Below are positions 50,346 through 63,923 of a stretch of DNA of 63,923 nucleotides, one piece after another (position 1 is the stretch's first letter; each line of letters starts with the position of its first letter). The position numbers were made by a program, and so were the translations under genes. The notes beneath the pieces are model-generated. The model did not search any database and was not told the DNA's origin. It was given only the letters and a program-made list of their open reading frames with translations. Origin of the DNA: an uncultured Clostridia bacterium (lineage in GTDB: Bacteria; Bacillota; Clostridia; Christensenellales; CAG-314); contig CANQNJ010000003.1 of assembly GCA_947625185.1 (NCBI GenBank), positions 1 to 63,923 of the forward strand. Reading direction: 5' to 3'.

Positions 50346-50516
50346 AGATTATCTCCTTGTGCGCACATTTCTCTTTATACAGTATATCATATTTTTTACT
50401 TGCATTCAATAGCAATAATATAATTTAAGCCAAAAAACGCCGCAAAAGGGTGTATTTCATAGGGAATCGAAAAAAACAAAATTTTTTATCGGAATACACC
50501 TTCAAGCGAGTCAAAT

Positions 50517-50549
50517 AAAGAGGTCGAGGATTTTACTCTCGACTTCTTT
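50517..50549 (-). terminator. Hairpin downstream of rhuM: possible operon terminator and island edge
   Basis: AAAGAGGTCGAG (50517-50528) pairs with CTCGACTTCTTT (50538-50549) with one G-T pair. An imperfect inverted repeat GGTGTATTTC/GGAATACACC lies at 50449-50458 and 50491-50500 just beside it. Confidence 0.45.
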
Positions 50550-50599
50550 ATTTATATTTGTGGCGATATTATATAGCCGATTTATCTTGATGTCCGAAA

Positions 50600-51598
50600 C
50601 TACTTCTTGTCTTTTTTTGAAAGTTCTTCAATACAATCAAGATATGCTTTTTCTACATCGCTTAAAGTTTTTGCTTGATATTTTTTGTATTCTCTTTTTG
50701 CTTTGTCAATTGCCTGCTCGTGCGTGACGGTGCCTGCACCAAGCAAGAGTTGTTCACCGCTCATTGTGAGGATTCTATCAAGATGGTCTGCCCAATCCGC
50801 CATAGTCATGGGTTGTTCGCGCTCGGCTTGCCGCTCGGCAAAATCAAGATATCCTGAAACAATTTGACCAAGCGAGCGCAATTCCTTTTCGCTGAGATAG
50901 TTTTTTGCCACCGTCACATCGCTCAAATGAGGCCTATCTCCCTTGAATGTTGTTAGTCCCATAAAATCTTTTTCGGCATCTGCGCGAGAATAAATCACCT
51001 CAGCCGCAGTATGACCGTGTACGGCATAATGAATTTTGTTTTGAACCTTTTTGAAGAACTCAACCGAAATCTCAGCATTCGGATCATAGTCTATACTTGT
51101 GGCATAGATGTCAAGTATTTGGCGATAGAATACTTTCTCCGAGGCACGAATATCGCGGATTCGCTCTAACAATTCTTTGAAATATCCGCCACCACCAAGT
51201 TCTTTCAGTCGGTCGTCATCAAGTGTAAACCCTTTGCGGATATATTCATTGAGTCGTTTTGTCGCCCACTGACGGAATTGCGTTCCGCGCAAAGATTTCA
51301 CACGATATCCGACCGAAATTATCACGTCAAGGTTGTAATAGTCCACCCGATATGTTTTGCCGTCCGAAGCAGTTGTTGCAAAATTTGCAACAACTGCCCC
51401 GCGATCAAGCTCGCCTTCTTCAAAAATATTCTTGATATGGCGGGAAATCGTAGATTTATCTCTGTCAAACAGCATCGCCATTTGGTCAAGTGTAAGCCAC
51501 ACCGTTTCCCCGTGAAACAATACATCAACCGCCACATTATTATCTTCGGTCTTGAAAATTATAAAATGTTGATTGCCATCGAACGAATTCTTATCCAT
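50600..51598 (-). CDS. rhuM: RhuM-family protein
   Basis: EKVFYRQILDIYATSIDYD..FFKKVQNKIHYAVHGHTAAEVIYSRAD..VAKNYL...EL..L..IVS.YLDFAE.QA matches the RhuM family as I remember it. It starts 13 nt after the hsdR stop. Confidence 0.8.
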   Translation of the reverse strand: MDKNSFDGNQHFIIFKTEDNNVAVDVLFHGETVWLTLDQMAMLFDRDKSTISRHIKNIFEEGELDRGAVVANFATTASDGKTYRVDYYNLDVIISVGYRVKSLRGTQFRQWATKRLNEYIRKGFTLDDDRLKELGGGGYFKELLERIRDIRASEKVFYRQILDIYATSIDYDPNAEISVEFFKKVQNKIHYAVHGHTAAEVIYSRADAEKDFMGLTTFKGDRPHLSDVTVAKNYLSEKELRSLGQIVSGYLDFAERQAEREQPMTMADWADHLDRILTMSGEQLLLGAGTVTHEQAIDKAKREYKKYQAKTLSDVEKAYLDCIEELSKKDKK

Positions 51599-51611
51599 AA
51601 TTTTTCCTCCC

Positions 51612-54587
51612 TCAATCGCCTTTTCTCAATTCTTTATAGATCTCACTTGCAAAAATTCCCAATACTTCCCTCTTGATCTCGTCGTTATTCAAAAGCAAGG
51701 AGAAGAAATCTTGATTTTGAGCGAGGCCTTCAATCAGCGCGTCGTCTATATCGTCGAAATAAGTAAATTCAAAGTCCTTTTCGGAATTGTTCCTCGCGCT
51801 TGTACGCAGCTTGTCGGACTTCAAAAGCAGATCTCTGATCTGCAACATTGCTTTGATCACCACGTCGCTATCATACGATTTGCCCGTTCTGCTATTGATC
51901 TCCGCAATTATAACAGACAGCCTCTCTTGCTTATCTTCCGGCAAAGTTATGGTATCTGCCATGGGCAATTTTATCACAGGATCGGAATGGAGTTTTTCTT
52001 TCACGTGAGTTTCACCCTTCTTCTGTACGAATTGAGAGGCTTTTATTTTGCCATCCAAATTGTAGCCGCCGCCCGGCTGTTTTATATCGATGTACGAAAG
52101 CAAATATGACACAAACAAATACTTCTTGTGCAGTTCGACGTCCTCAAAGCAAGACACTTGAATTAGAAACTCATAAAACCTCACAAAATGACGCATGACG
52201 GCAACTATTTCAAGTTGTTTCGACACATCGCCGGATTGCTCCAAACGAGCCTGCGCGCGCTTAAAATAGTACGTCAACTTTTGTTTGTCCCGCGGCGTCA
52301 CCTCTTTATACAAGAGTGCAACGGCGCAGTCGATATCCGATGGATCAAGGATATAATATCCATCGAGTTTCGCCTCCAAATCATAAACAGCCGTAGGCGT
52401 TACGGAATTGGCAAGCAGCGTCGTGGTGTAATATGGCTTGAACGCATCCACAATCTCGTCATATGTATTGACAAAATCAAGCACGAAGGTCTTTTTGTCA
52501 AATGGCGGGCAGATGCGATTCAAGCGAGAGAGCGTTTGCACGGCATTGACGCCGCGCAATTTTTTGAGGACATACATGGCGCACAGCTTTGGCTGGTCGA
52601 AACCCGTTTGATATTTGTTTGCAACAAGCAAGACTTTGTTCTCATCCTTTTCAAACTCTCGCGGGAGCCGTTCTTCCGAAAACCCGTTGATAAAACCTTC
52701 CGTATACTCGGTCTCTTCATCGGGGAGCTTAACCTTTCCCGAAAATGCCACAAGGGATCTGATGTCGGTATATCCTTTCTTTTCAATATATTCTTCAAAT
52801 GCGCGATGATATTTTACAGCGCCTGCGCGGGAAGCGGTGATAACCATTGCTTTCGCCATGCCGCCGAGTTCGGGCATAACCGTGGTGCGAAAGTGTTCGA
52901 TGATCACTTCGATACGTTGCGCAATATTGGTTTCGTGCAATTCCACAAAACGAGCGATCTGCCGTTTCGCTTCAACCGTTTTGCACCGAGGATCTTCTTC
53001 GATTTCTTTGTTGATTTGATAATAGGTTTTATATTCGGTGAAATTTTGCAAAACGTCGAGAATAAAGCCTTCTTCAATTGCCTGTTTCATCGAATAGATA
53101 TGGAACGCTTGCTTTTGGCCCTTTGGATTTTGTCTGCCGAAAAGTTCCAGAGTCGTCGCTTTGGGCGTTGCGGTAAATGCAAATATGGATATATTGGGCT
53201 GTTTCCCATTGCGTGCGATCTCGTCTACTATCAAATCTTCCGCGTCAATCGCGTCGACGTCCACATCTCCCTTTCCCAACGCCATTGTGATTGCCGCCAT
53301 ATCTTTGCCTGCCGTTGAGGAATGGGCCTCGTCAATGATAACCGCAAAGGTTTTGTTTTTTAATCCCGCAACCGTATCAACGATATACGGGAACTTTTGA
53401 ATTGTCGTAGCAATGATTTTTGTATTGCCTGTCAGAGCGATCGCAAGATCGGCGGATGTGCATTTGTCGTCCATAACGCGGATAAGTCCCGTCTTATGTT
53501 CCATGCCGAGGATAGCCGCTTGCAGTTGCCTGTCCACAACAACTCTGTCCGTGACGATGACTATGTTGTCAAAGATTATCTTATCATCGCTGTCATGCAA
53601 AGACGCCAGGCGATGAGCAAGCCATGCGATAGAATTGGTTTTGCCCGAGCCTGCGCTGTGCTGGATAAGATAATTTTGCGAGGTTTTATTTGCTTTCACA
53701 TCGGCAAGCAGACGACGAATGACGTCAAGTTGATGATATCTTGGAAAAATGATATTTTCTTTCACCTTCTTTTTGCCTGTCAACTCATCTGTTTCCTCTT
53801 TTATTTCGATGAACATAAACTTTGTGATAAGCTCAACAAGCATATCCTTTTTCAAAATGTCCGCCCACATATAATAGACGCTGTATTTGTCATCATATGC
53901 GGGATTGCCCTTGCCTGCGTCTATGCCCTCGCCGCTGCCCATATTGAATGGCAAAAAGAAGGTGTCTTCGCCATTCAATTTTGTCGTCATATAAACTTCG
54001 TTGAGATCCATGGCAAAGTTGACAAGGCACCCCGCCTTAAAACGGAACAGCCGCGTTTTCGGGTTGCGTTGAGTGCGATATTGATAGATCGCGTCCATAT
54101 AGGATTGTCCCGCAAAGTTGCATTTAAGCTCAAATGAAATGACGGCAAGTCCGTTGATGAACACAACAAGATCGACGCGCTCATCATCGCTCGCCCACAC
54201 CTCCTCCATGACAGAAAAGATGTTCTTATTGTATTTTGCGAGCAAATCGGCATTGAATGTCGTGGCAGGTTTGGTATAGAGCAGATCCAGTTTGTAATTT
54301 GCGATCTCTACGCCGTGCTTGAGGACGGACAAAAGGCTTCCCCGCGCTTTTGTGATCTCCGCATTGAGAAAGTTGATGATGGTCTCTTCTGCCTTGTCCT
54401 TGAATATCTTGACAAGCGCCGCCATTGTATCGGGCTGGGTGTCGTTGAGAAACCGAAACAGCATTTCGCGGTCAATGGCAAACGCGCGGTCGAAATGCGC
54501 CGCCTTGCGTTCGATATAGCCGTTTTCTGTCACAAGCCTTTCAATGATATATTTTTGATATTCTTTTTCGGACACGATATTGTTCAT
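51612..54587 (-). CDS. hsdR: Type I restriction enzyme, R subunit
   Basis: 991 aa with an N-terminal nuclease region, helicase motif I HSAGSGKT and motif II VIIDEAHSS, and later SF2 motifs. Confidence 0.9.
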   Translation of the reverse strand: MNNIVSEKEYQKYIIERLVTENGYIERKAAHFDRAFAIDREMLFRFLNDTQPDTMAALVKIFKDKAEETIINFLNAEITKARGSLLSVLKHGVEIANYKLDLLYTKPATTFNADLLAKYNKNIFSVMEEVWASDDERVDLVVFINGLAVISFELKCNFAGQSYMDAIYQYRTQRNPKTRLFRFKAGCLVNFAMDLNEVYMTTKLNGEDTFFLPFNMGSGEGIDAGKGNPAYDDKYSVYYMWADILKKDMLVELITKFMFIEIKEETDELTGKKKVKENIIFPRYHQLDVIRRLLADVKANKTSQNYLIQHSAGSGKTNSIAWLAHRLASLHDSDDKIIFDNIVIVTDRVVVDRQLQAAILGMEHKTGLIRVMDDKCTSADLAIALTGNTKIIATTIQKFPYIVDTVAGLKNKTFAVIIDEAHSSTAGKDMAAITMALGKGDVDVDAIDAEDLIVDEIARNGKQPNISIFAFTATPKATTLELFGRQNPKGQKQAFHIYSMKQAIEEGFILDVLQNFTEYKTYYQINKEIEEDPRCKTVEAKRQIARFVELHETNIAQRIEVIIEHFRTTVMPELGGMAKAMVITASRAGAVKYHRAFEEYIEKKGYTDIRSLVAFSGKVKLPDEETEYTEGFINGFSEERLPREFEKDENKVLLVANKYQTGFDQPKLCAMYVLKKLRGVNAVQTLSRLNRICPPFDKKTFVLDFVNTYDEIVDAFKPYYTTTLLANSVTPTAVYDLEAKLDGYYILDPSDIDCAVALLYKEVTPRDKQKLTYYFKRAQARLEQSGDVSKQLEIVAVMRHFVRFYEFLIQVSCFEDVELHKKYLFVSYLLSYIDIKQPGGGYNLDGKIKASQFVQKKGETHVKEKLHSDPVIKLPMADTITLPEDKQERLSVIIAEINSRTGKSYDSDVVIKAMLQIRDLLLKSDKLRTSARNNSEKDFEFTYFDDIDDALIEGLAQNQDFFSLLLNNDEIKREVLGIFASEIYKELRKGD

Positions 54588-54590
54588 AAG

Positions 54591-55571
54591 TCACCTCACA
54601 TAGGATCTAATTCTCTTGATTAAACGCTCGGCAAACATTAGAGCAATTTCATCTGTCGATTGCCCTTGCGAACTAATGTATTGGATTTCCGCAATTTCAG
54701 GATATTTTTCTTCTAATTGACTCATCGTAACATTATGTAAAATTGGAAGAATAATTCTCTGCCCATCGCTATTTTGTCGTGCCAATAGTTCATAAAGTTC
54801 TCGCTCAGTCCATTCACGCCCAAAAAAGTTCTCGGAAATAACAATGATTGCAAATTCAGTTTTTTGCACGCCTTCTAAAATTTTCTCTTTCCAATGATCT
54901 CCCCATTTAAGCGTGTCTTTATCATAGAAAATGGATATACCAAGCCTATCAAGCGATTTTTTCAATTCATCGACATAATCTATCTTATCTTTATTTGCAT
55001 GGGACAAAAACAAATCGTATTCTACAAATGGTTCTATTGCACTATGTTCTACTTGTTTACCTCGTTGATTCTCATCAAAATAATGAATCCCCTCATAAGT
55101 TATAATAAAACTTACATGGTTTCGTCCAACTGATTTTAGCTTTTCGATCAAACCTTCATTCTGCAATTTCTTAAATGTTTCAATGCCAAAAGGTGCTAGC
55201 GGATAAGACAAAACCAGCGGGTCACTACAATCAACTTTGCTTAAAAGCACACTTAACAACTCTTCATATTCTTTAAGACTATCAGACACTCCATGCTCAA
55301 GCCAAAACTCATTGTCCTTTTTTATACTACGCAAACATGCTACAAGTGAACTTATTGTATCCTTCTCCCTATGCGCAATAATTTCTTGTATTCTTTTATA
55401 CAAAGGATGTGATACCAAATATTTATGGCTATAAATATCAACATCGTTTATCCATTCGTCCAATGTTGTTTTGCCCTCTACAGAGAGAAAATAGTTAGCA
55501 TTGGTATTGACAATAGCCTTAAACTTCCTTTCACGTTGAAGTAGTTCGTCAATCTGTATTCTTTGAGACAT
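54591..55571 (-). CDS. TIR-domain protein with an uncharacterised ~185-aa N-terminal domain, embedded between hsdS and hsdR
   Basis: The C-terminal ~135 aa are YDLFLSHANKDK..VDELKKSLDRLGISIFYDKDTLKWGD......I..G......AIIVISENFFGREWTERELYELL...ILPILH, a TIR_2-type pattern that includes W-x3-E (the Glu codon is at 54798-54800). RBS AGGAGG lies 9 nt upstream of ATG 55571, and the ATG lies 1 nt after the hsdS stop. The stop lies 3 nt before the hsdR ATG. Confidence 0.8.
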   Translation of the reverse strand: MSQRIQIDELLQRERKFKAIVNTNANYFLSVEGKTTLDEWINDVDIYSHKYLVSHPLYKRIQEIIAHREKDTISSLVACLRSIKKDNEFWLEHGVSDSLKEYEELLSVLLSKVDCSDPLVLSYPLAPFGIETFKKLQNEGLIEKLKSVGRNHVSFIITYEGIHYFDENQRGKQVEHSAIEPFVEYDLFLSHANKDKIDYVDELKKSLDRLGISIFYDKDTLKWGDHWKEKILEGVQKTEFAIIVISENFFGREWTERELYELLARQNSDGQRIILPILHNVTMSQLEEKYPEIAEIQYISSQGQSTDEIALMFAERLIKRIRSYVR

Positions 55572-55572
55572 T

Positions 55573-56832
55573 TTACACAACCTCCTTTTTGCCGGTGACA
55601 TATTCAAAGATAAGGGACTTTTTGTAGGTTTCGAGGGTTTCGATCTGCGACTGTTTTTGCGAGATCAATTCGTCGATTTGCGCGCACTTTTCGTCGAGAT
55701 AGTCAGCGATTGCTTGTTGCTCGGGAAGAGGCGGAATTAAAATTAAAGTATTTCCAAGTGCCTCAGCGGGTAAATCCCACTGTCCCTCTCTAATCCCGCC
55801 TGATAACCTTCTAAATTCCGTCGTATATGTACGATTTCTCATTAAAAAGTGAAAATAGCGTTTATCTATCAATGCGTCTGAAAATTCATAGACATAATAT
55901 GCCGGACTGACTATGCCTTCGTAGTTGGAAACCGCGACAGAACCCTGCCACGCTTTCATTTTGTTCACGACAAAATCGCCAACTCGAACATAACGATAAT
56001 TTGATGTGTCCTCCGAAGTGACATTGAAATTATCGTCCCTGCTGTCCTTGGGAACTACTCCATAATCGCGATACAAAGACAATACTTGTTTCTCTGCTTG
56101 ATTTTTAATACCGCGCAATTGCAAATGATATTTAAATTTATGCACTTGCCAATGGGCGGGAACTTGAGGCATCCACCCAGCCCCGCTATCCTTCATGGGG
56201 ACATTCGGATCAAGGCCATGTGTGACGGCTTCGGTGATGACGGAACGCTTGTATTTCTCCAACGTGTCTATCTGCGCTTCAATATCCGCTTTCAAACCGT
56301 CAATTTTCTCGCACTCCTTATCCAAAAAATCCGCAATGCGCTGCTGCTCGTCAATCAGCGGAATCGGCATTCTCACATCAAACAAATCATCTTTTCCCAA
56401 ATTACTTCTTACACCGTCATCTCCAAGCGCATTGAAAATTTGATTTTTCCAAAGCACATAAAAGTACTTTTCGGCATAGCGGGGAGACATACCCTTCTCT
56501 GCTCGCAAAATAATGTATGTGGGCGAAACAATTCCCGTAAAGGGGGACAAGCCCACACGACTCGTCGAAACGTTCTGTAAATCTATCAATTTGAAAACCA
56601 ATTCATCTTTGCGGAGAATTTGGTATGTTTCAAATTTATCGGGTTGTAAACCTGTATTGTCGTCTTTCGAGCGCTTCACCACATTTTGCATCGTCAAAGC
56701 AAGCCGGTCATAATCATCACAATAACAGCCGACGATTTCCTTTTTATAGCGGAATTTATGCTTGACTTTTACGACTTCCCACGTTTCGGGAATCTCGCCC
56801 ACCCATTCAATTTTGCTGTCTTTCATATTCAA
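55573..56832 (-). CDS. hsdS: Type I restriction-modification specificity subunit
   Basis: Two target-recognition domains are each followed by a conserved helix (LIDEQQRIADFLDKECEKIDGL...LEKYKRSVITEAVT and LPEQQAIADYLDEKCAQIDEL...LETYKKSLIFEYVTGK). Confidence 0.9.
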   Translation of the reverse strand: MNMKDSKIEWVGEIPETWEVVKVKHKFRYKKEIVGCYCDDYDRLALTMQNVVKRSKDDNTGLQPDKFETYQILRKDELVFKLIDLQNVSTSRVGLSPFTGIVSPTYIILRAEKGMSPRYAEKYFYVLWKNQIFNALGDDGVRSNLGKDDLFDVRMPIPLIDEQQRIADFLDKECEKIDGLKADIEAQIDTLEKYKRSVITEAVTHGLDPNVPMKDSGAGWMPQVPAHWQVHKFKYHLQLRGIKNQAEKQVLSLYRDYGVVPKDSRDDNFNVTSEDTSNYRYVRVGDFVVNKMKAWQGSVAVSNYEGIVSPAYYVYEFSDALIDKRYFHFLMRNRTYTTEFRRLSGGIREGQWDLPAEALGNTLILIPPLPEQQAIADYLDEKCAQIDELISQKQSQIETLETYKKSLIFEYVTGKKEVV

Positions 56833-56841
56833 AATCTATCC

Positions 56842-58404
56842 TTAATCAAACAAACTTATCATTTCCTCAAGTAGTAGTTTGAGATTCTCAAAGACAACTT
56901 CCAACGTCTGCGACTCTAAACTACATAAATAGTCACAGCACCCCATCTTATCAAATTCTTCAAACTCTTGCTTCTCTCCATACTTACCCTTTTTTGCTTT
57001 TTTGTTATAGAAATGAGAAATATCTATATCATCTAAAATAAGAGCATTCTCTATTCCTACATCTATCCCCTTAGAATTTTTTTGTTCTGCTATATGGCGA
57101 ATATAAAGGTTGCCCACATTTTCATCTTTTTTGTTTGTATCACTATCATATAACAATATTATTTTTATTTGCAAGTCCTGCGAAAGTAAAAATTGATATG
57201 CTTGATTCAATGCAGTACAACCTGTATTTTCTTCTTGTCCATTTTTATTAAAATGACCTATCCATTTCACTTCAAAGGGCAAATTCAATCCATATACTTC
57301 AGCCGCACGTTTAATATATTTTTCATCTGTTCTTCCTTCTACATATAAAATTGGTGTAGTGGTTGAAAAATCATATACATTGAACGCGTCCTCAACGGCC
57401 TTTGTGCTTTCACAGGAATAATATTCCGGATTGTCTTCAACCACAATTCTTCCGTCATCACTTTTCTTCAAAACGATAACCTTGTCATTGTATCGATTAT
57501 TGCTATGAATGATAAACGGCGAATGCGTTACGGCAAAAATTTGCGAAGTTTGCTGACCTTTTTCATTCGTAAAAATTTTCTTATAGTAATTCAATATCTT
57601 CTTTTGCCACTCGGGATGCAAGCTGATTTCGGGCTCATCAAGTAACACCAATGCGCCCATCAATGCATTTTTATCTTTAAGTAAATAGCCCCCGCGATAT
57701 ACTATTTGTTTTTCGCCCGAGCTTAGCATGTTCAAATAAATCTTGTGTCCATATATGTCATTAAAATAAACTGATTTTTGCGCTGAGTTATTATCAACGC
57801 CACCCCAAGTTAGTTTTTTACCAAACATATAATCATAAGCACTTATGAATCTTAATATCCTTTTATCAGTAGGGATTTTGTCTATCGGTCGACCTACACG
57901 TCTTGCTTCCCTTACCTCAGATGTAAACTCATTTGAATCCATATTTTGAATGTCTATAAGCAACTGTTCAATTTCTCTCGCCAAATTCGCGTTTGATTTA
58001 CGAGACTCATTATTTTGATCTATATCTAATGCGGTCACGGTATTTATCATACGATCTTTTCTATAATTAATATCTACATCGGAAAAGATAGCATTGGGTA
58101 TATACTGAAACCCTCCAAAATCTATTGTACTGCCGCCATGTATATTGATTTCTTTACAGAATGTGCCCCTCTGAGAATCTATTAGTATGTCCGCTTCATA
58201 TCGCCCGGCCGATATAGGATCATAGTCTCCGAAAACCGCATAAATCATGTTTAATAGTGTTGATTTCCCAGCGCCATTTTCTCCTGCTATGATTATAGTA
58301 TCAACAGGATTTCCGTTCTTGTCAGTAAAGTCAAACTCCATGTCTCCAAAAAGATAATGATTATTGCATCTTAATTTCAATAATCTTGCGCCAAGTACCT
58401 CCAT
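56842..58404 (-). CDS. ABC-type ATPase fused to a TOPRIM/DUF4435-like nuclease domain (OLD-family, fused RloA-RloB or PARIS-like), embedded between hsdM and hsdS
   Basis: It has Walker A GENGAGKST, signature-like LSSGEKQ, Walker B LVLLDEPE and H-loop VTHSP. The C-terminal ILYVEGRTDEKY and LLYDSDT are TOPRIM-type acidic motifs. RBS GGAGG lies 8 nt upstream of ATG 58404, inside the hsdM 3' end. Confidence 0.75.
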   Translation of the reverse strand: MEVLGARLLKLRCNNHYLFGDMEFDFTDKNGNPVDTIIIAGENGAGKSTLLNMIYAVFGDYDPISAGRYEADILIDSQRGTFCKEINIHGGSTIDFGGFQYIPNAIFSDVDINYRKDRMINTVTALDIDQNNESRKSNANLAREIEQLLIDIQNMDSNEFTSEVREARRVGRPIDKIPTDKRILRFISAYDYMFGKKLTWGGVDNNSAQKSVYFNDIYGHKIYLNMLSSGEKQIVYRGGYLLKDKNALMGALVLLDEPEISLHPEWQKKILNYYKKIFTNEKGQQTSQIFAVTHSPFIIHSNNRYNDKVIVLKKSDDGRIVVEDNPEYYSCESTKAVEDAFNVYDFSTTTPILYVEGRTDEKYIKRAAEVYGLNLPFEVKWIGHFNKNGQEENTGCTALNQAYQFLLSQDLQIKIILLYDSDTNKKDENVGNLYIRHIAEQKNSKGIDVGIENALILDDIDISHFYNKKAKKGKYGEKQEFEEFDKMGCCDYLCSLESQTLEVVFENLKLLLEEMISLFD

Positions 58405-58405
58405 T

Positions 58406-60494
58406 TTATTTACCTCCGAACAGTTTTTCGATCCCTTCGCTGACGCTTCTTTCAAGCTCCATGAATTTTGCGGCAAGCTCGTCGCTCGGTTGCGGCTTTT
58501 GATATTTGTAGAAATAACGTGTGAACGGGATTTCCGCGCCGACCTTTATCACAGGCTTCTTTGCGCTCAAGTTCTCCTCAAAAAACGCCACCGCGTCCGG
58601 GACATATGGCAACACTTCACGCGCCATATAATCGTCAATATCTTCCTCGTATTTAACAATTTCGGTGTTCTTTGTTTCTTTGTCGTAAATGACGTTGCCC
58701 TTCTTGTCCTTTTGGATCTCGGCAGACTTGTCCATAATGGAAAGTCCGTTGGCTATTTTCTCAAGCAACTTTTTATCTACATCCAAAATAGTGGCAAGGT
58801 ATTCGAGGAAAGGTGCAGGAGAAAAAAAACACCTTGTCTGAAATATTGGCGCGGAGTTTTGCCAAAATCGCGTCGTACAACGGTTTGTTGTCGGAAAACT
58901 TTTCGAGCGTCTTTTTGTCCTTGTCGGTGATGGCTACGCCCATATTTTCAAGTTCTGCGACCTTCCCCTCATCATAAATCGAATTCAGCGCGCCTTTCAT
59001 CAACATTTGCTCGATGCGCTCCTCGGTGATTGCATAGCTGCGTTGCAATGGCTGATATACCGCATATTCGCGATAGAGGAATTTTTCATTCTTGAATATC
59101 TTGCAATATTCGTTTTCAACAAAATCGGCATAGAGATGCGTCACCGACTTTCTGTCTTCGGGCGCGATCTCATTCTTTTTGTTGCCGACTGCCTTGCGGA
59201 GCTTGTGATAAAATGTTTCGGCATTGATGAGTTGGATCTTGCCCCTCCTCTCTGCGCGTTTATTCTTTGATATTATCCACACATAGGTCTGAATGCCTGT
59301 GTTGTAGAAAAGGTCGGTGGGCAGCGCAATGATCGCCTCGATAAGATCGCTTTCCAAAAGCCAACGACGAATCTGACTCTCTCCCGATCCCGTATCTCCG
59401 TTGAACAGCGGCGACCCGTTTTCAATGATAGCCGCTCTGCCGTTCTTTTCGTCCAACTTATCGACAGCCGATTGCAAAAAGATCATTTGCGAATCGCCGC
59501 CGCTCGGAAGTCCATGTCCCCAACGTCCTATTTCTCCGCGTTCGTATTCGTCGCGGACCGCTTTTTCCTGCCCCTCTTTTACATGCTCGCCAGACCACGG
59601 CGTGCCAAAAGGAGGATTTTCAATCACAAAGCGCATGCGAATATCGCTGAAACAGTCCGTCTTGAAGGTGTCAATGTGCATGAAGTTTTCCGCATTCTGC
59701 CCTTTTATCAACATCTCCGCAAGCCCAACCGCATAGGAAACACCCATCAGTTCTTGCCCGAACAACCTTACATCTGCCGTAGGATTGTAGTGTTTGATAT
59801 AGTTGTAAGCGGTTGAAAGCATGCCGCCCGTTCCGCAAGCCTGATCGCATACGGTTATGACCTTCCCATCGGCGAAAATGTCGTCGCACCCTTCCGCCAT
59901 GAGGATCTCGACAAGCAGCTTTATAATGTCCCTGCCCGTATAATATTGTCCAGCGTCAACATTTTGGAAAAATCTGCCGATAAGATTTTCAAATATGTAG
60001 CCCATGCGGATGCTGTCAAACTTTTCAATGCTCACATCAAGCTCCGAAAACGCTTTGACAACAGTATATAGACACCCGTCTTTGTTCATTTTGTCAATAT
60101 GCTTTGTGAGTTCAAGTTCATTCAAAATGCTTTGCACATTTGAAGAAAAACCATTGATATAGGACTTGAAATTTTCGGCAATGTTGTCGGAATCATTGCA
60201 TAGCTCCGCAAGCGTATAATTACTTGTACAATAAAATTGATACCCCGATTTGCGACAAAGCGCTTTGGGAGGAAGACTCGGATTCTTATTATACTCAGAA
60301 ACAACTTTTGCCTTTGTCTTTTCAAGAGCGCACTCAAAACGCCGAATGATAGTCATCGGAATAATTACATCGCCATACTTATCGGGCATATATGAGCCGC
60401 GCAACTTGTTTGCGATGGACCAAATAAAGTTGGCTTCCTGCGTTATGTCGATGGGACTGTCATCCCACATTGTGTCTAAAATCTTGTTTGGCAT
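58406..60494 (-). pseudogene. hsdM: Type I R-M methyltransferase subunit, interrupted by a frameshift in a T8 tract
   Basis: ORF 58773..60494 carries the HsdM N-domain, DQACGTGGML (motif I) and ENPPFG (motif IV), and ends in out-of-frame junk (FFFSCTFPRIPCHYFGCR*). ORF 58406..58786 encodes the typical C-terminal EIPFTRYFYKY tail. Removing one T from the T8 run joins them (..ISDKVFFSPAPFLEYLATILDVDKKLLEK..) into about 695 aa. Confidence 0.85.
58822..58829 (-). repeat. Homopolymeric tract at the hsdM frameshift (A8 on plus, T8 on the coding strand)
   Basis: gagAAAAAAAAcacc was counted directly. Confidence 0.95.
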
Positions 60495-60540
60495 ATTCGC
60501 TCCTGCAATGAGATTTTTCGCTTATAATAAACCATTTTGA

Positions 60541-60569
60541 ATTTTATCATTTTTTCGCATAAAAGTCAA
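60541..60569 (-). promoter_or_regulatory. Candidate promoter of the hsdM operon
   Basis: The minus strand reads TTGACT (60569-60564), a 17-nt spacer ending in TGa, then TAAAAT (60546-60541). RBS AGGAG precedes ATG 60494. Confidence 0.55.
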
Positions 60570-60890
60570 TTATTAAACATAATGCGACAAGACTCAAGCA
60601 AGTAATCTATGAACGCTACAACGAATATGATCTTACGCTTCTAACTCTGACATAAAATTATCTGTTGACCTAATTTTTGCTATTAAGAATACGATCACTT
60701 TCTATCATTAACTATACCCATTCGCCTCGTCTTGAAATAGCTCCATTCACGATTATTTTTGCAACAAAATAATCTCTTCCCTCCCAAAGCGGGTTTCCCG
60801 CTTGTAGAGTGTCGAAAGTGCGTTGTGGCACTTTCCTTATCCTGCCTCCCCATTTTTGGCAATTTGCCACAGATTTTGCATGTATTAAAT

Positions 60891-61200
60891 AAAATTTTTT
60901 TTATTTTAGACCCTTCGGTTTTGCCTCAAAATCGCTCTTCTTATTAGAGGGGTGTTGAACGGCAGAATTCTCGACGGAGGAGTCGCTGGAGCGCGGCAAA
61001 AAAATTTTTTTGAAGAATTTTGCGTTTAGCCCCTTCGGTTTTGCCCGAAAAACGCCCCTTTAAGTGAGGGGTATGTACGACAGCAAGCATGGCGCGGTGG
61101 CACTTACAACCTTCGAAGAAAAATTTTTTGAAAAATTTTCAATTTAGGGGGTACGATTTTGCCAAAAAATCGCCCTTTTAAGTGAAGGGATATAAAGGAG
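60891..61200 (+). repeat. Three tandem degenerate ~110-120-nt direct repeats (leader-like units)
   Basis: The three units start at about 60891, 60999 and 61119. Each reads A/T-run, TTTAG(A/C/G)CCC.., TTTTGCC..AAAA.CGC(C)C.T.TTAAGTGA(G/A)GGG. The third ends in AAAGGAGG and a 4-codon ORF (MNTS*). Confidence 0.7.
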
Positions 61201-61319
61201 GAAATGTTATGAACACATCGTAATAACGTAAGCAAAGACGACCAACGAGGCAATCCTGTAGCGAGCAAACGGAAAGCAAAAGTGGGACGATTTTCGGAAA
61301 AGTAAGAGGCAGGATAAGG

Positions 61320-61350
61320 GAATTGCATTTTTTGGTGCAAAATGCAATTC
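61320..61350. repeat. Perfect 12-bp inverted repeat
   Basis: GAATTGCATTTT (61320-61331), a 7-nt loop, then AAAATGCAATTC (61339-61350). Confidence 0.85.
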
Positions 61351-61512
61351 CGCGTCCTCCCCGCCGAGCGGGGAAATGGGAAGCTGGAAACACGCCTCCC
61401 CGTGTGTTCTCATTCGGACTTAATTTTGCCTGTAGCCCTTGACTCTTTGGCTGAAATGGAGTAAAATGTATGTGTCGTATGAATACGATTGATATATTTT
61501 ACGGAGGTTATT

Positions 61513-61800
61513 ATGGAAAAGAAACCGAGATCTGTCAAGGACAAGCGTTATGAGGAAAAGCACAAAGCAGAACGCAAAGCGAAAAACGCCACTTGGGGGA
61601 CAAGCGTTCCCCGCGAGAAGGCAGAACAGATAAACGCTTTTCTCGAAAGATATGGCTATACCAAAGTCCAACTCATAGAAGCAGGCTATAAGGCTTTGTT
61701 GGACGATGCCGCCGAACATAATCTTTCGCTCGGTAGGATTATGGACGGCTATGATGACTTCTTCCCTTCTGAATTGGAGGCGATGAAGAAAACCGAGTAA
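61513..61800 (+). CDS. Small basic hypothetical protein (95 aa), mobile-element associated
   Basis: RBS GGAGG lies 5 nt upstream of ATG 61513, giving MEKKPRSVKDKRYEEKHKAERKAKNATWGTSVPREKAEQINAFLERYGYTKVQLIEAGY. I recall similar small proteins next to large serine recombinases but cannot name the family with confidence. Confidence 0.55.
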   Translation: MEKKPRSVKDKRYEEKHKAERKAKNATWGTSVPREKAEQINAFLERYGYTKVQLIEAGYKALLDDAAEHNLSLGRIMDGYDDFFPSELEAMKKTE

Positions 61801-62138
61801 CGAAACAGGGTTCCCGAAAAAGATTTGCGTAGCAAAGATTTTTTGGGAAGAGGAGCGGCAAGTCGAAAATAGCAGCCGCGAAATGAAAATGAGCGGCGGG
61901 TGCAAAGACTTTGCAGCGACGAAAGGAGGAAATGCGATGGAAAGAGGACATAGTATTCAGCGCTATAAGGGCGAGGGATATTCCAAGCGCTCGAATAAGA
62001 ATACTTGAACAACAAACAATTCAGTTATCAAAAAGAAATCGGAAACATAATTTACACAATAATTGTAAGAGAAAGCGAAACCGCAAAGGAAACGGTTTTG
62101 AAGAAGCTCGAAAGAGCGATCATTAGGGACTCGCTTGA

Positions 62139-63824
<1,686 letters not shown>

Positions 63825-63923
63825 CCTTCGGAAATGCCAACAAATAGGTTCTATAATAAATGTTGGGGTGTGAGTAAAAAAAGATAGAGCAAAGACTCTT
63901 TTTCAGTGTATAATTGAATTGCG

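Follow-up and report, generated by a model that had tools for sequence, protein, structure and literature searches.

Gene organization of the locus

The DNA analysed here, called the window below, is a stretch of 63,923 nucleotides (nt) from an uncultured Clostridia bacterium (contig CANQNJ010000003.1 of assembly GCA_947625185.1, positions 1 to 63,923). Between hsdM and hsdS of a type I restriction-modification (R-M) operon it carries a gene, here called X, which encodes a protein of 520 amino acids (aa) at 56842-58404 on the minus strand. Our results suggest that X joins an ABC-type ATPase and a divergent TOPRIM-type nuclease domain in one chain, and that it is probably a self-contained OLD-like anti-phage nuclease which acts by abortive infection and is carried as cargo in the R-M operon. 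The features of X are as follows. Motif invariance was judged in an alignment (A1) of 30 homologues which are 45-60% identical to X, and the coordinates were verified by translation.

56842..58404, minus strand: X, complete gene of 520 aa, stop codon included (open reading frame list, GGAGG and ATG context, full-length homologues)
57415..58404, minus strand: ABC-type ATPase domain, residues 1-330 (Pfam, PADLOC, PDB sequence matches, Foldseek)
58261..58284, minus strand: Walker A or P-loop GENGAGKS, residues 41-48, invariant
57706..57726, minus strand: ABC signature LSSGEKQ, residues 227-233; SSGEKQ (228-233) invariant, L227 in at least 90% of sequences
57634..57651, minus strand: Walker B LVLLDE, residues 252-257; D256 and E257 invariant
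after Walker B, minus strand: D-loop PEISLH
57523-57525, minus strand: H-loop histidine H294, invariant
56842..57372, minus strand: predicted TOPRIM-like nuclease domain with helical tail, residues about 345-520 (AlphaFold2 (AF2) model, Foldseek, hhalign)
57322..57339, minus strand: putative TOPRIM motif 1, E356-G-R-T-D360-E361, right after β1 (model residues 352-355); E356, G357, T359, D360 and E361 invariant
57139..57147, minus strand: putative TOPRIM motif 2, D420-S-D422 (DxD), right after β3 (residues 415-419); D420 and D422 invariant
57046..57057, minus strand: third motif G450-I-E452-N453; G450, E452 and N453 invariant

The location and the neighbours named in the initial annotation, with hsdM and hsdS on the two sides and no GajB-type helicase after X, were confirmed by the open reading frame list and by Pfam. 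All of the motifs it had named (Walker A, signature, Walker B, H-loop and VEGRTDE...DSD) were also present and invariant across the homologues.

X is an intact gene under strong constraint

The open reading frame of X ends at 56842 and offers two starts, an ATG at 58404 for 520 aa and, further upstream, a TTG at 58476 for 544 aa. A GGAGG ribosome-binding site lies 6-10 nt upstream of the ATG, the stop codon of hsdM occupies 58406-58408 and leaves 1 nt between the two genes, and all of the homologues begin at the position equivalent to this ATG. The ATG at 58404 is therefore the likely start of X, and the longer version from the TTG was dismissed. At the other end of the gene, hsdS starts 9 nt past the stop codon.

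X matched 1,368 homologous protein clusters at E ≤ 1e-5, which is far beyond chance. The 120 best of these clusters that were listed are about 513-537 aa long, with nearly the whole query covered. X is a real, intact gene under strong constraint. The initial annotation had described it as short for an OLD protein. It is indeed shorter than P2 Old (586 aa), but it equals in size the class 1 OLD of Thermus scotoductus (TsOLD, 528 aa, PDB 6p74).

The N-terminal half is an ABC-type ATPase related to defence ATPases

A two-helix insert (residues about 141-197, helices taken from the AF2 model) lies between the two lobes of the ATPase domain. Two Pfam domain models matched X above their cut-offs, AAA_21 (3.5e-18, 67 bits against a cut-off of 27) and AAA_15 (2.1e-15, 58 bits against 32), the pair that the initial annotation had named for a search. 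In PADLOC the top match was Septu PtuA at 8e-34, followed by AriAB and AriA at about 5e-25 (6e-25 for AriA). Sequence and profile searches of the PDB with the ATPase returned AriA, retron PtuA and TsOLD, and Foldseek with the full-length model returned PtuA, Rad50, OLD, GajA and AriA. X reached the cut-off of no curated family: NCBIfam PtuA reached 54 of the required 500 bits, and TIGR04435 (restriction system-associated AAA ATPase) reached 66.7 of 300 in a match that is limited to residues 220-328.

The C-terminal domain resembles the TOPRIM domain of retron Eco2

The full-length Foldseek search was swamped by the ATPase and was uninformative on the C-terminus, so the C-terminal domain was folded separately. 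The AF2 model of this domain alone was confident, with a pLDDT of 87.6 and a pTM of 0.84. Its best match in the PDB was the reverse transcriptase (RT)-TOPRIM protein of retron Eco2 (E 2.9e-4, probability 1.0, TM 0.52), and the second was AriB of PARIS (E 8e-3, probability 0.98). Weaker matches (E 0.1-0.3) were to the C-terminal parts of class 2 OLD nucleases, and no significant match was found among the viral structures of BFVD.

By a criterion that Aravind, Leipe and Koonin reportedly formulated in 1998, TOPRIM is a small α/β domain in which strand β1 ends in a conserved Glu and strand β3 in a DxD. The predicted fold of the C-terminal domain of X shows this arrangement. The catalytic residues of Eco2 are E374, D378, D460 and D462 (PMC12916289). 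The pattern E-x3-D...D-x-D of X matches this set, and the spacing E-x3-D is the same as between E374 and D378. In an hhalign comparison, the broad profile of the C-terminal family aligned in register with residues 374-457 of P2 Old (P=0.0016), a stretch which includes the Pfam OLD-like_TOPRIM call of that protein (389-455), and the E and DxD motifs fell on those of P2 Old, the DxD on its "DCD". Moreover, a 231-aa family member (P0244) matched six RT-Toprim_I-C models of PADLOC (3e-5 to 0.013), and the matches extended across the two halves of the domain. The E and N of the third motif, GIEN, are at least 90% conserved in the broad alignment (A3, 34% mean identity), and this motif is a candidate for an additional metal or substrate ligand.

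The C-terminal half of X matched RT-Toprim_I-C (0.0046) and PDC-M38B (0.0015) weakly in PADLOC, and neither the narrow (A2) nor the broad (A3) family profile found a TOPRIM protein in the PDB. Matches of relatives to other nuclease families were below threshold. RloB was seen in two relatives (0.013 for P0148 and 0.004 for a Clostridium perfringens homologue, against a cut-off of 31.5 bits), and OLD-like_TOPRIM was seen in P0244 (0.093). The alignments of hhalign to a true RloB protein (P=0.042, 25 columns) and to a Planktothrix protein annotated as DUF4435 (P=0.021, 28 columns) comprised the E-G motif alone.

Because of the fold match, the Glu and DxD after β1 and β3, the Eco2-like residue pattern, the profile alignment with P2 Old and the matches of P0244, we assign the C-terminal domain of X as a predicted divergent TOPRIM domain which is closest to the retron I-C type and is not DUF4435 or RloB. 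The single-chain architecture of ABC ATPase and TOPRIM-type nuclease proposed in the initial annotation is thus supported by the fold match, the motif positions and the profile alignment.

X differs from the named ABC-ATPase-TOPRIM systems

Class 1 OLD proteins (P2 Old and TsOLD) resemble X in general plan. They are single chains of about 520-590 aa with an AAA_15/AAA_21 ATPase that bears a helical insert and with a C-terminal TOPRIM domain, and they need no obligate partner gene; X likewise has no helicase or reverse-transcriptase partner. However, X has no match to the Pfam OLD-like_TOPRIM model (PF20469) at E ≤ 10, its motif 1 reads E-G-x-T-D-E whereas that of P2 Old reads E-G-K-T-E, and its domain model matched OLD TOPRIM structures weakly in Foldseek (E 0.1-0.3). 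Class 1 OLD genes have been described as isolated single genes (PMC10568477), whereas X often sits within a type I R-M operon.

Retron Eco2 (type I-C; PDB 9i2f and 9lm3) provides the best structural match and the same E-x3-D...D-x-D pattern. Its TOPRIM domain is fused to a reverse transcriptase and caged by multicopy single-stranded DNA (msDNA), whereas the regulator in X is an ABC ATPase; X has neither an RT (no RVT match in the N-terminal 330 residues) nor a non-coding RNA. PARIS (AriA with AriB, or merged AriAB) pairs an ABC ATPase of the same clade with a TOPRIM-type effector, and single-gene fusions of it are known. Unlike PARIS, X has no DUF4435 (PF14491) match, and at 520 aa it has a much shorter ATPase insert. 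The PADLOC AriAB match of X (86 bits) covers positions 302-504 of 694, and the C-terminal half alone matched neither AriAB nor AriB. The RloA-RloB or AbiL type differs by its RloB domain (PF13707), for which X has no match.

Gabija (GajA, class 2 OLD) also differs. X is flanked by hsdM and hsdS, no UvrD-type helicase lies beside it, and no helicase neighbour was conserved in 30 homologue loci, which agrees with the earlier statement that X is not Gabija. The PtuA ATPases of Septu and of retron I-A are the best-scoring ATPase relatives in PADLOC (8e-34), PDB profile and Foldseek searches, but Septu PtuA uses a separate HNH nuclease, PtuB, whereas X has its own putative TOPRIM domain and no HNH gene is adjacent to it in the window. 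PrrC (prr, EcoprrI locus) resembles X in joining an ABC-type NTPase to a C-terminal nuclease inside a type I R-M operon. Its nuclease is not TOPRIM, and a PADLOC scan of the C-terminal half of X at E ≤ 10 returned no PrrC model. PrrC has its place between hsdS and hsdR and almost never occurs outside R-M loci, whereas X is mostly found outside of them.

HEC-04, found by "guilt by embedding", is an embedded single-gene ABC-ATPase-TOPRIM fusion whose phage defence depends on Walker A as well as on the TOPRIM site (Payne et al. 2024, bioRxiv 10.1101/2024.01.29.577857). It resembles X as a single-gene fusion, but it is embedded in Hma systems and belongs to another sequence family. No HEC-04 model was among the PADLOC matches to the C-terminal domain of X, nor among the 25 best listed for the whole protein or for the N-terminal half.

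X belongs to none of OLD (PF20469), PARIS, RloAB, Gabija, Septu and retron I-C. The earlier label of a fused RloA-RloB or PARIS protein is unsupported as a family assignment. The nearest TOPRIM domain is that of retron Eco2, and the best ATPase match is Septu PtuA. Placing X in the broad OLD/PARIS/Rlo assemblage stands, and the family labels of the initial annotation are supported in part. We conclude that X represents a family of ABC-ATPase-TOPRIM proteins which has no name of its own and whose Eco2-like TOPRIM domain is missed by curated models, and that the principle itself is already known from OLD and HEC-04.

The family is widespread and its C-terminal domain is found on other NTPases

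The X family comprises more than 1,300 clusters at 90% identity in five or more phyla. Full-length homologues were found in Spirochaetota, Bacillota, Actinomycetota, Verrucomicrobiota and Bacteroidota, where their public names say "AAA family ATPase" and nothing further. A tblastn search against 50,697 phage records gave no homologue of X. The profile of the C-terminal domain found 618 clusters at 50% identity, most of them proteins of 510-620 aa with the same architecture as X. The same type of C-terminal domain was also found fused to an SF2 helicase (P0148, 831 aa, whose helicase part matches PADLOC PDC-S28), to a STAND NTPase (P0183, 1085 aa) and to Mrr_cat-NB-ARC (P0231, 1352 aa), and another protein of 1078 aa (P0212) ends with it. 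These fusions to other sensor NTPases suggest that the C-terminal domain behaves as a portable, swappable effector. The broad C-terminal HMM (hidden Markov model) had no match at E ≤ 10 among all open reading frames of 51 loci of related ATPases (L042-L092), which indicates that the partner nucleases of those ATPases are not detectably of the same family.

Relatives of X were also present on mobilizable plasmids of C. perfringens. On one of them (locus L095, NZ_CP148635.1, 5293-7821), a relative of 607 aa with 35% identity across 82% of X directly follows a HicA/HicB toxin-antitoxin pair and has type I CRISPR-Cas genes nearby. In Collinsella, a separate AAA ATPase gene and, right after it, a true RloB gene (L028, 11001-12957, Pfam 2.3e-27; the same in L029, L030 and L037) lie about 1.5-3 kb downstream of a solitary X homologue. 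This pair of the AbiL/RloAB type shows the Collinsella loci to be small defence islands.

X homologues are repeatedly nested in type I R-M operons

About 11 of the 38 loci examined (about 30%) showed such nesting. Among species-representative loci, 6 of 29 lay inside type I R-M operons, and among nine metagenomic look-ups four were embedded in type I R-M and one lay beside hsdS. The same nesting as in the window was seen in L001, L008, L013, L015, L017, L019, L021, L096 and L098. The remaining loci, about 70%, are solitary or lie in defence islands or mobile elements with no adjacent R-M genes. Where X is embedded in or adjacent to R-M genes, it stands directly upstream of hsdS in nine of 12 cases, the window included, and in one further case a single small gene lies in between. 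X often overlaps or abuts its neighbours, and translational coupling is frequent.

When the neighbours within 4 kb were clustered over 30 homologue loci in a search for a conserved partner gene, only HsdS, HsdM, HsdR and lineage-specific synteny were found. In the tree, embedded members fall into at least four clades and are interleaved with solitary members. Between operons with HsdM and HsdR identities of 25-30% (about 26% for HsdM), the X proteins share 45-50% identity. A single ancestral embedding that was inherited with the R-M operon was rejected on this identity contrast and on the four clades. Embedding has thus occurred more than once, and into unrelated type I lineages.

Other variable inserts were observed in type I operons that carry X (L096 8562-13067, L098 6199-6885 and 9775-11577, L001 9422-11807). 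They include DpnII-MboI-like, DUF4145, YhcG/DUF1016 and SLFN_AlbA_2-HATPase genes, along with several small genes that lack annotation. The spaces that separate hsdM, hsdS and hsdR serve as hotspots for cargo. Together with the identity contrast and the interleaved tree, these inserts make X fit better as mobile embedded cargo than as a dedicated partner of the restriction enzyme. One lineage of X-bearing operons also has a half-size (about 200 aa) HsdS-like open reading frame directly upstream of hsdM, besides the full-length hsdS after X, at the following places.

L008 4130-4732: half-size HsdS-like open reading frame
L013 4985-5581: the same
L017 4971-5621: the same
L019 2189-2788: the same
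L021 4839-5432: the same

The host operon in the window

X is the second of six tightly packed genes on the minus strand, in the order hsdM-X-hsdS-TIR-hsdR-rhuM. The other genes of the operon and the recombinase gene nearby are listed here.

58406..60494, minus strand: hsdM, directly upstream of X (Pfam N6_Mtase 4e-52, HsdM_N 1e-22)
55573..56832, minus strand: hsdS (Pfam Methylase_S 2e-15, two stretches)
54591..55607, minus strand: TIR-domain protein of 338 aa, between hsdS and hsdR (TIR_2 2.6e-19)
51612..54587, minus strand: hsdR (Pfam HSDR_N, ResIII, SWI2_SNF2, T1R_D3-like)
50600..51598, minus strand: RhuM-family gene, last of the operon, directly after hsdR (Pfam 4e-112; PADLOC PDC-S05 3.5e-179)
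62166..63824, beside the R-M block: large serine recombinase gene (Resolvase, Recombinase, Zn_ribbon_recom, DUF4368)

A site resembling a promoter was seen ahead of hsdM (60569-60541) and a hairpin of 17 bp past rhuM (50513-50553); between these two no convincing terminator was found. The TIR protein (54591-55607) matches PADLOC PDC-S66 (2e-41) and ThsB-like (3e-25) models. Its TIR domain is C-terminal, and the N-terminal 185 residues carry no annotation. With X, the TIR protein and RhuM, several defence candidates are embedded in one type I operon. The R-M block (50400-63923) is a low-GC island, with 38-45% GC versus 50-56% in most of the remaining window, and it possibly represents an integrative element that continues past the window's end.

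A single additional base in a homopolymer (58822-58829, A8 on the plus strand) splits hsdM into open reading frames of 573 aa and 126 aa. In tblastn, homologous HsdM proteins aligned in two frames of this gene, and removing one T from the homopolymer gave a continuous reading frame. In other gut metagenomes, contigs of related strains have one base fewer at 58822, while contigs from the same sample match the window. The frameshift could reflect phase variation, a pseudogene or an assembly or consensus error.

Proposed function and alternative explanations

We propose that X is a self-contained, single-chain OLD-like anti-phage nuclease which acts by abortive infection and travels as cargo in the type I R-M operon, with a probability of roughly 0.6. 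By analogy with TsOLD, AriA and PtuA, the ATPase, whose motifs are intact, would self-associate through its helical insert and hold the nuclease off. The ATPase module would then sense a phage-derived cue, and an ATP-dependent rearrangement would expose the TOPRIM site formed by E356, D360, D420, D422 and possibly E452, where two Mg2+ ions may be bound as in the chemistry known from OLD and Eco2 structures. Cutting of host nucleic acid would abort the infection, through halted translation if the substrate is tRNA. Eco2 cuts tRNA (PMC12916289), AriB cleaves tRNA (PMC11464382) and P2 Old cuts tRNA anticodon arms (PMC12445682). Because these three closest TOPRIM proteins are all tRNases, tRNA or another RNA is the somewhat favoured target of X, and DNA, as for GajA and Eco8, is a tentative second candidate.

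The cargo reading implies that X would work without the R-M enzyme. The R-M subunits are its sole conserved cross-lineage neighbours in the 30 homologue loci, and many members are solitary or lie in defence islands or mobile elements, which argues for autonomy. Nesting between hsdM and hsdS would give co-transcription and co-transfer with the R-M system and possibly a back-up layer of defence.

Several points weigh against this proposal. The activity of the family is deduced from sequence, fold and context, and the substrate and the trigger given above are conjecture. No RNA-seq run containing the gene was found in which expression could be seen. The initial annotation had asked for a TOPRIM or DUF4435 profile match in the C-terminal domain; a Pfam scan of residues 333-520 (the C-terminal 187 residues) at E ≤ 10 gave noise only, with no TOPRIM, DUF4435 or RloB model. 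The TM-score to Eco2 is moderate and reflects a match at the level of the fold. Finally, nesting at about 30% of loci, nearly always just upstream of hsdS, is far above what is expected of random cargo and leaves room for a functional link of X with R-M.

Such a link is the core of a guard mechanism like that of PrrC or PARIS, in which X would monitor the type I enzyme or directly bind its inhibitors (DNA mimics like Ocr and ArdA, or peptides like Stp) and free a TOPRIM tRNase once restriction is neutralised. This is plausible and the most interesting rival, although on balance we regard it as rather unlikely. PrrC, an ABC-type NTPase-nuclease found almost exclusively in type I R-M operons, is triggered by Stp, and PARIS is triggered by Ocr (PMC9122126; PMC11464382). 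The initial annotation had invoked PARIS for the placement of X and had overlooked PrrC, the classical precedent. The nesting it relied on is indeed recurrent, in at least four clades of X and two unrelated type I lineages, with X often translationally coupled just ahead of hsdS. However, its argument holds only in part, since most family members lie outside R-M loci, and a protein shared by R-M lineages whose HsdM are about 26% identical is not expected to have a specific protein-protein fit to them. In addition, the C-terminal domain matches neither DUF4435 nor PrrC, many unrelated genes are embedded in the same operons, and in the window hsdM is frameshifted while X is intact. A combined model, in which an Eco2-like, tRNA-cutting TOPRIM domain on an ABC-ATPase sensor serves as a tripwire against anti-restriction in the R-M-embedded clades and as a portable effector in the SF2-helicase and STAND fusions, is also doubtful.

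X could alternatively be an integral subunit like those of MADS, which equips the type I complex with a further nuclease or ATPase activity. The tight packing with hsdM and hsdS and weak mad3 matches (PADLOC 6e-16; NCBIfam MADS3 25 bits) would agree with this, but the score is far under the family cut-off (25.5 bits versus 420), the operon already has a full set of hsdM, hsdS and hsdR, and most X homologues have no methylase neighbour, so we consider it very unlikely. It is hardly credible that X is an ABC/SMC-like ATPase for housekeeping or repair, comparable to RecF, SbcC or Rad50, or that it is a decaying gene, in either case without a defence function. Weak sub-threshold matches to SMC_N, SbcC and Rad50 were seen, but the proteins that X matches best (PtuA, AriA and OLD) are without exception defence ATPases. 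The family also has a patchy spread across phyla, plasmids, integrase elements and defence islands that resembles horizontal transfer, X itself lies in a low-GC island beside TIR, RhuM and serine recombinase genes, and its putative catalytic residues are all intact and invariant.

Proteins that combine an ABC ATPase with TOPRIM (Old, Gabija, PARIS, retron Eco8 and HEC-04) form a major branch of bacterial immunity that is still little understood. The field has asked if a single-gene class 1 protein of cellular origin can provide defence on its own (PMC10568477), and X, with 520 aa, is a compact candidate for answering this question. The family is abundant in gut bacteria and is above threshold in no curated Pfam, NCBIfam or PADLOC family, and the C-terminal domain would count as a further TOPRIM variant, one that escapes present sequence models. 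The recurrent placement of X beside hsdS, in type I systems that are unrelated to each other, provides a natural context for studying if anti-restriction is sensed by embedded systems.

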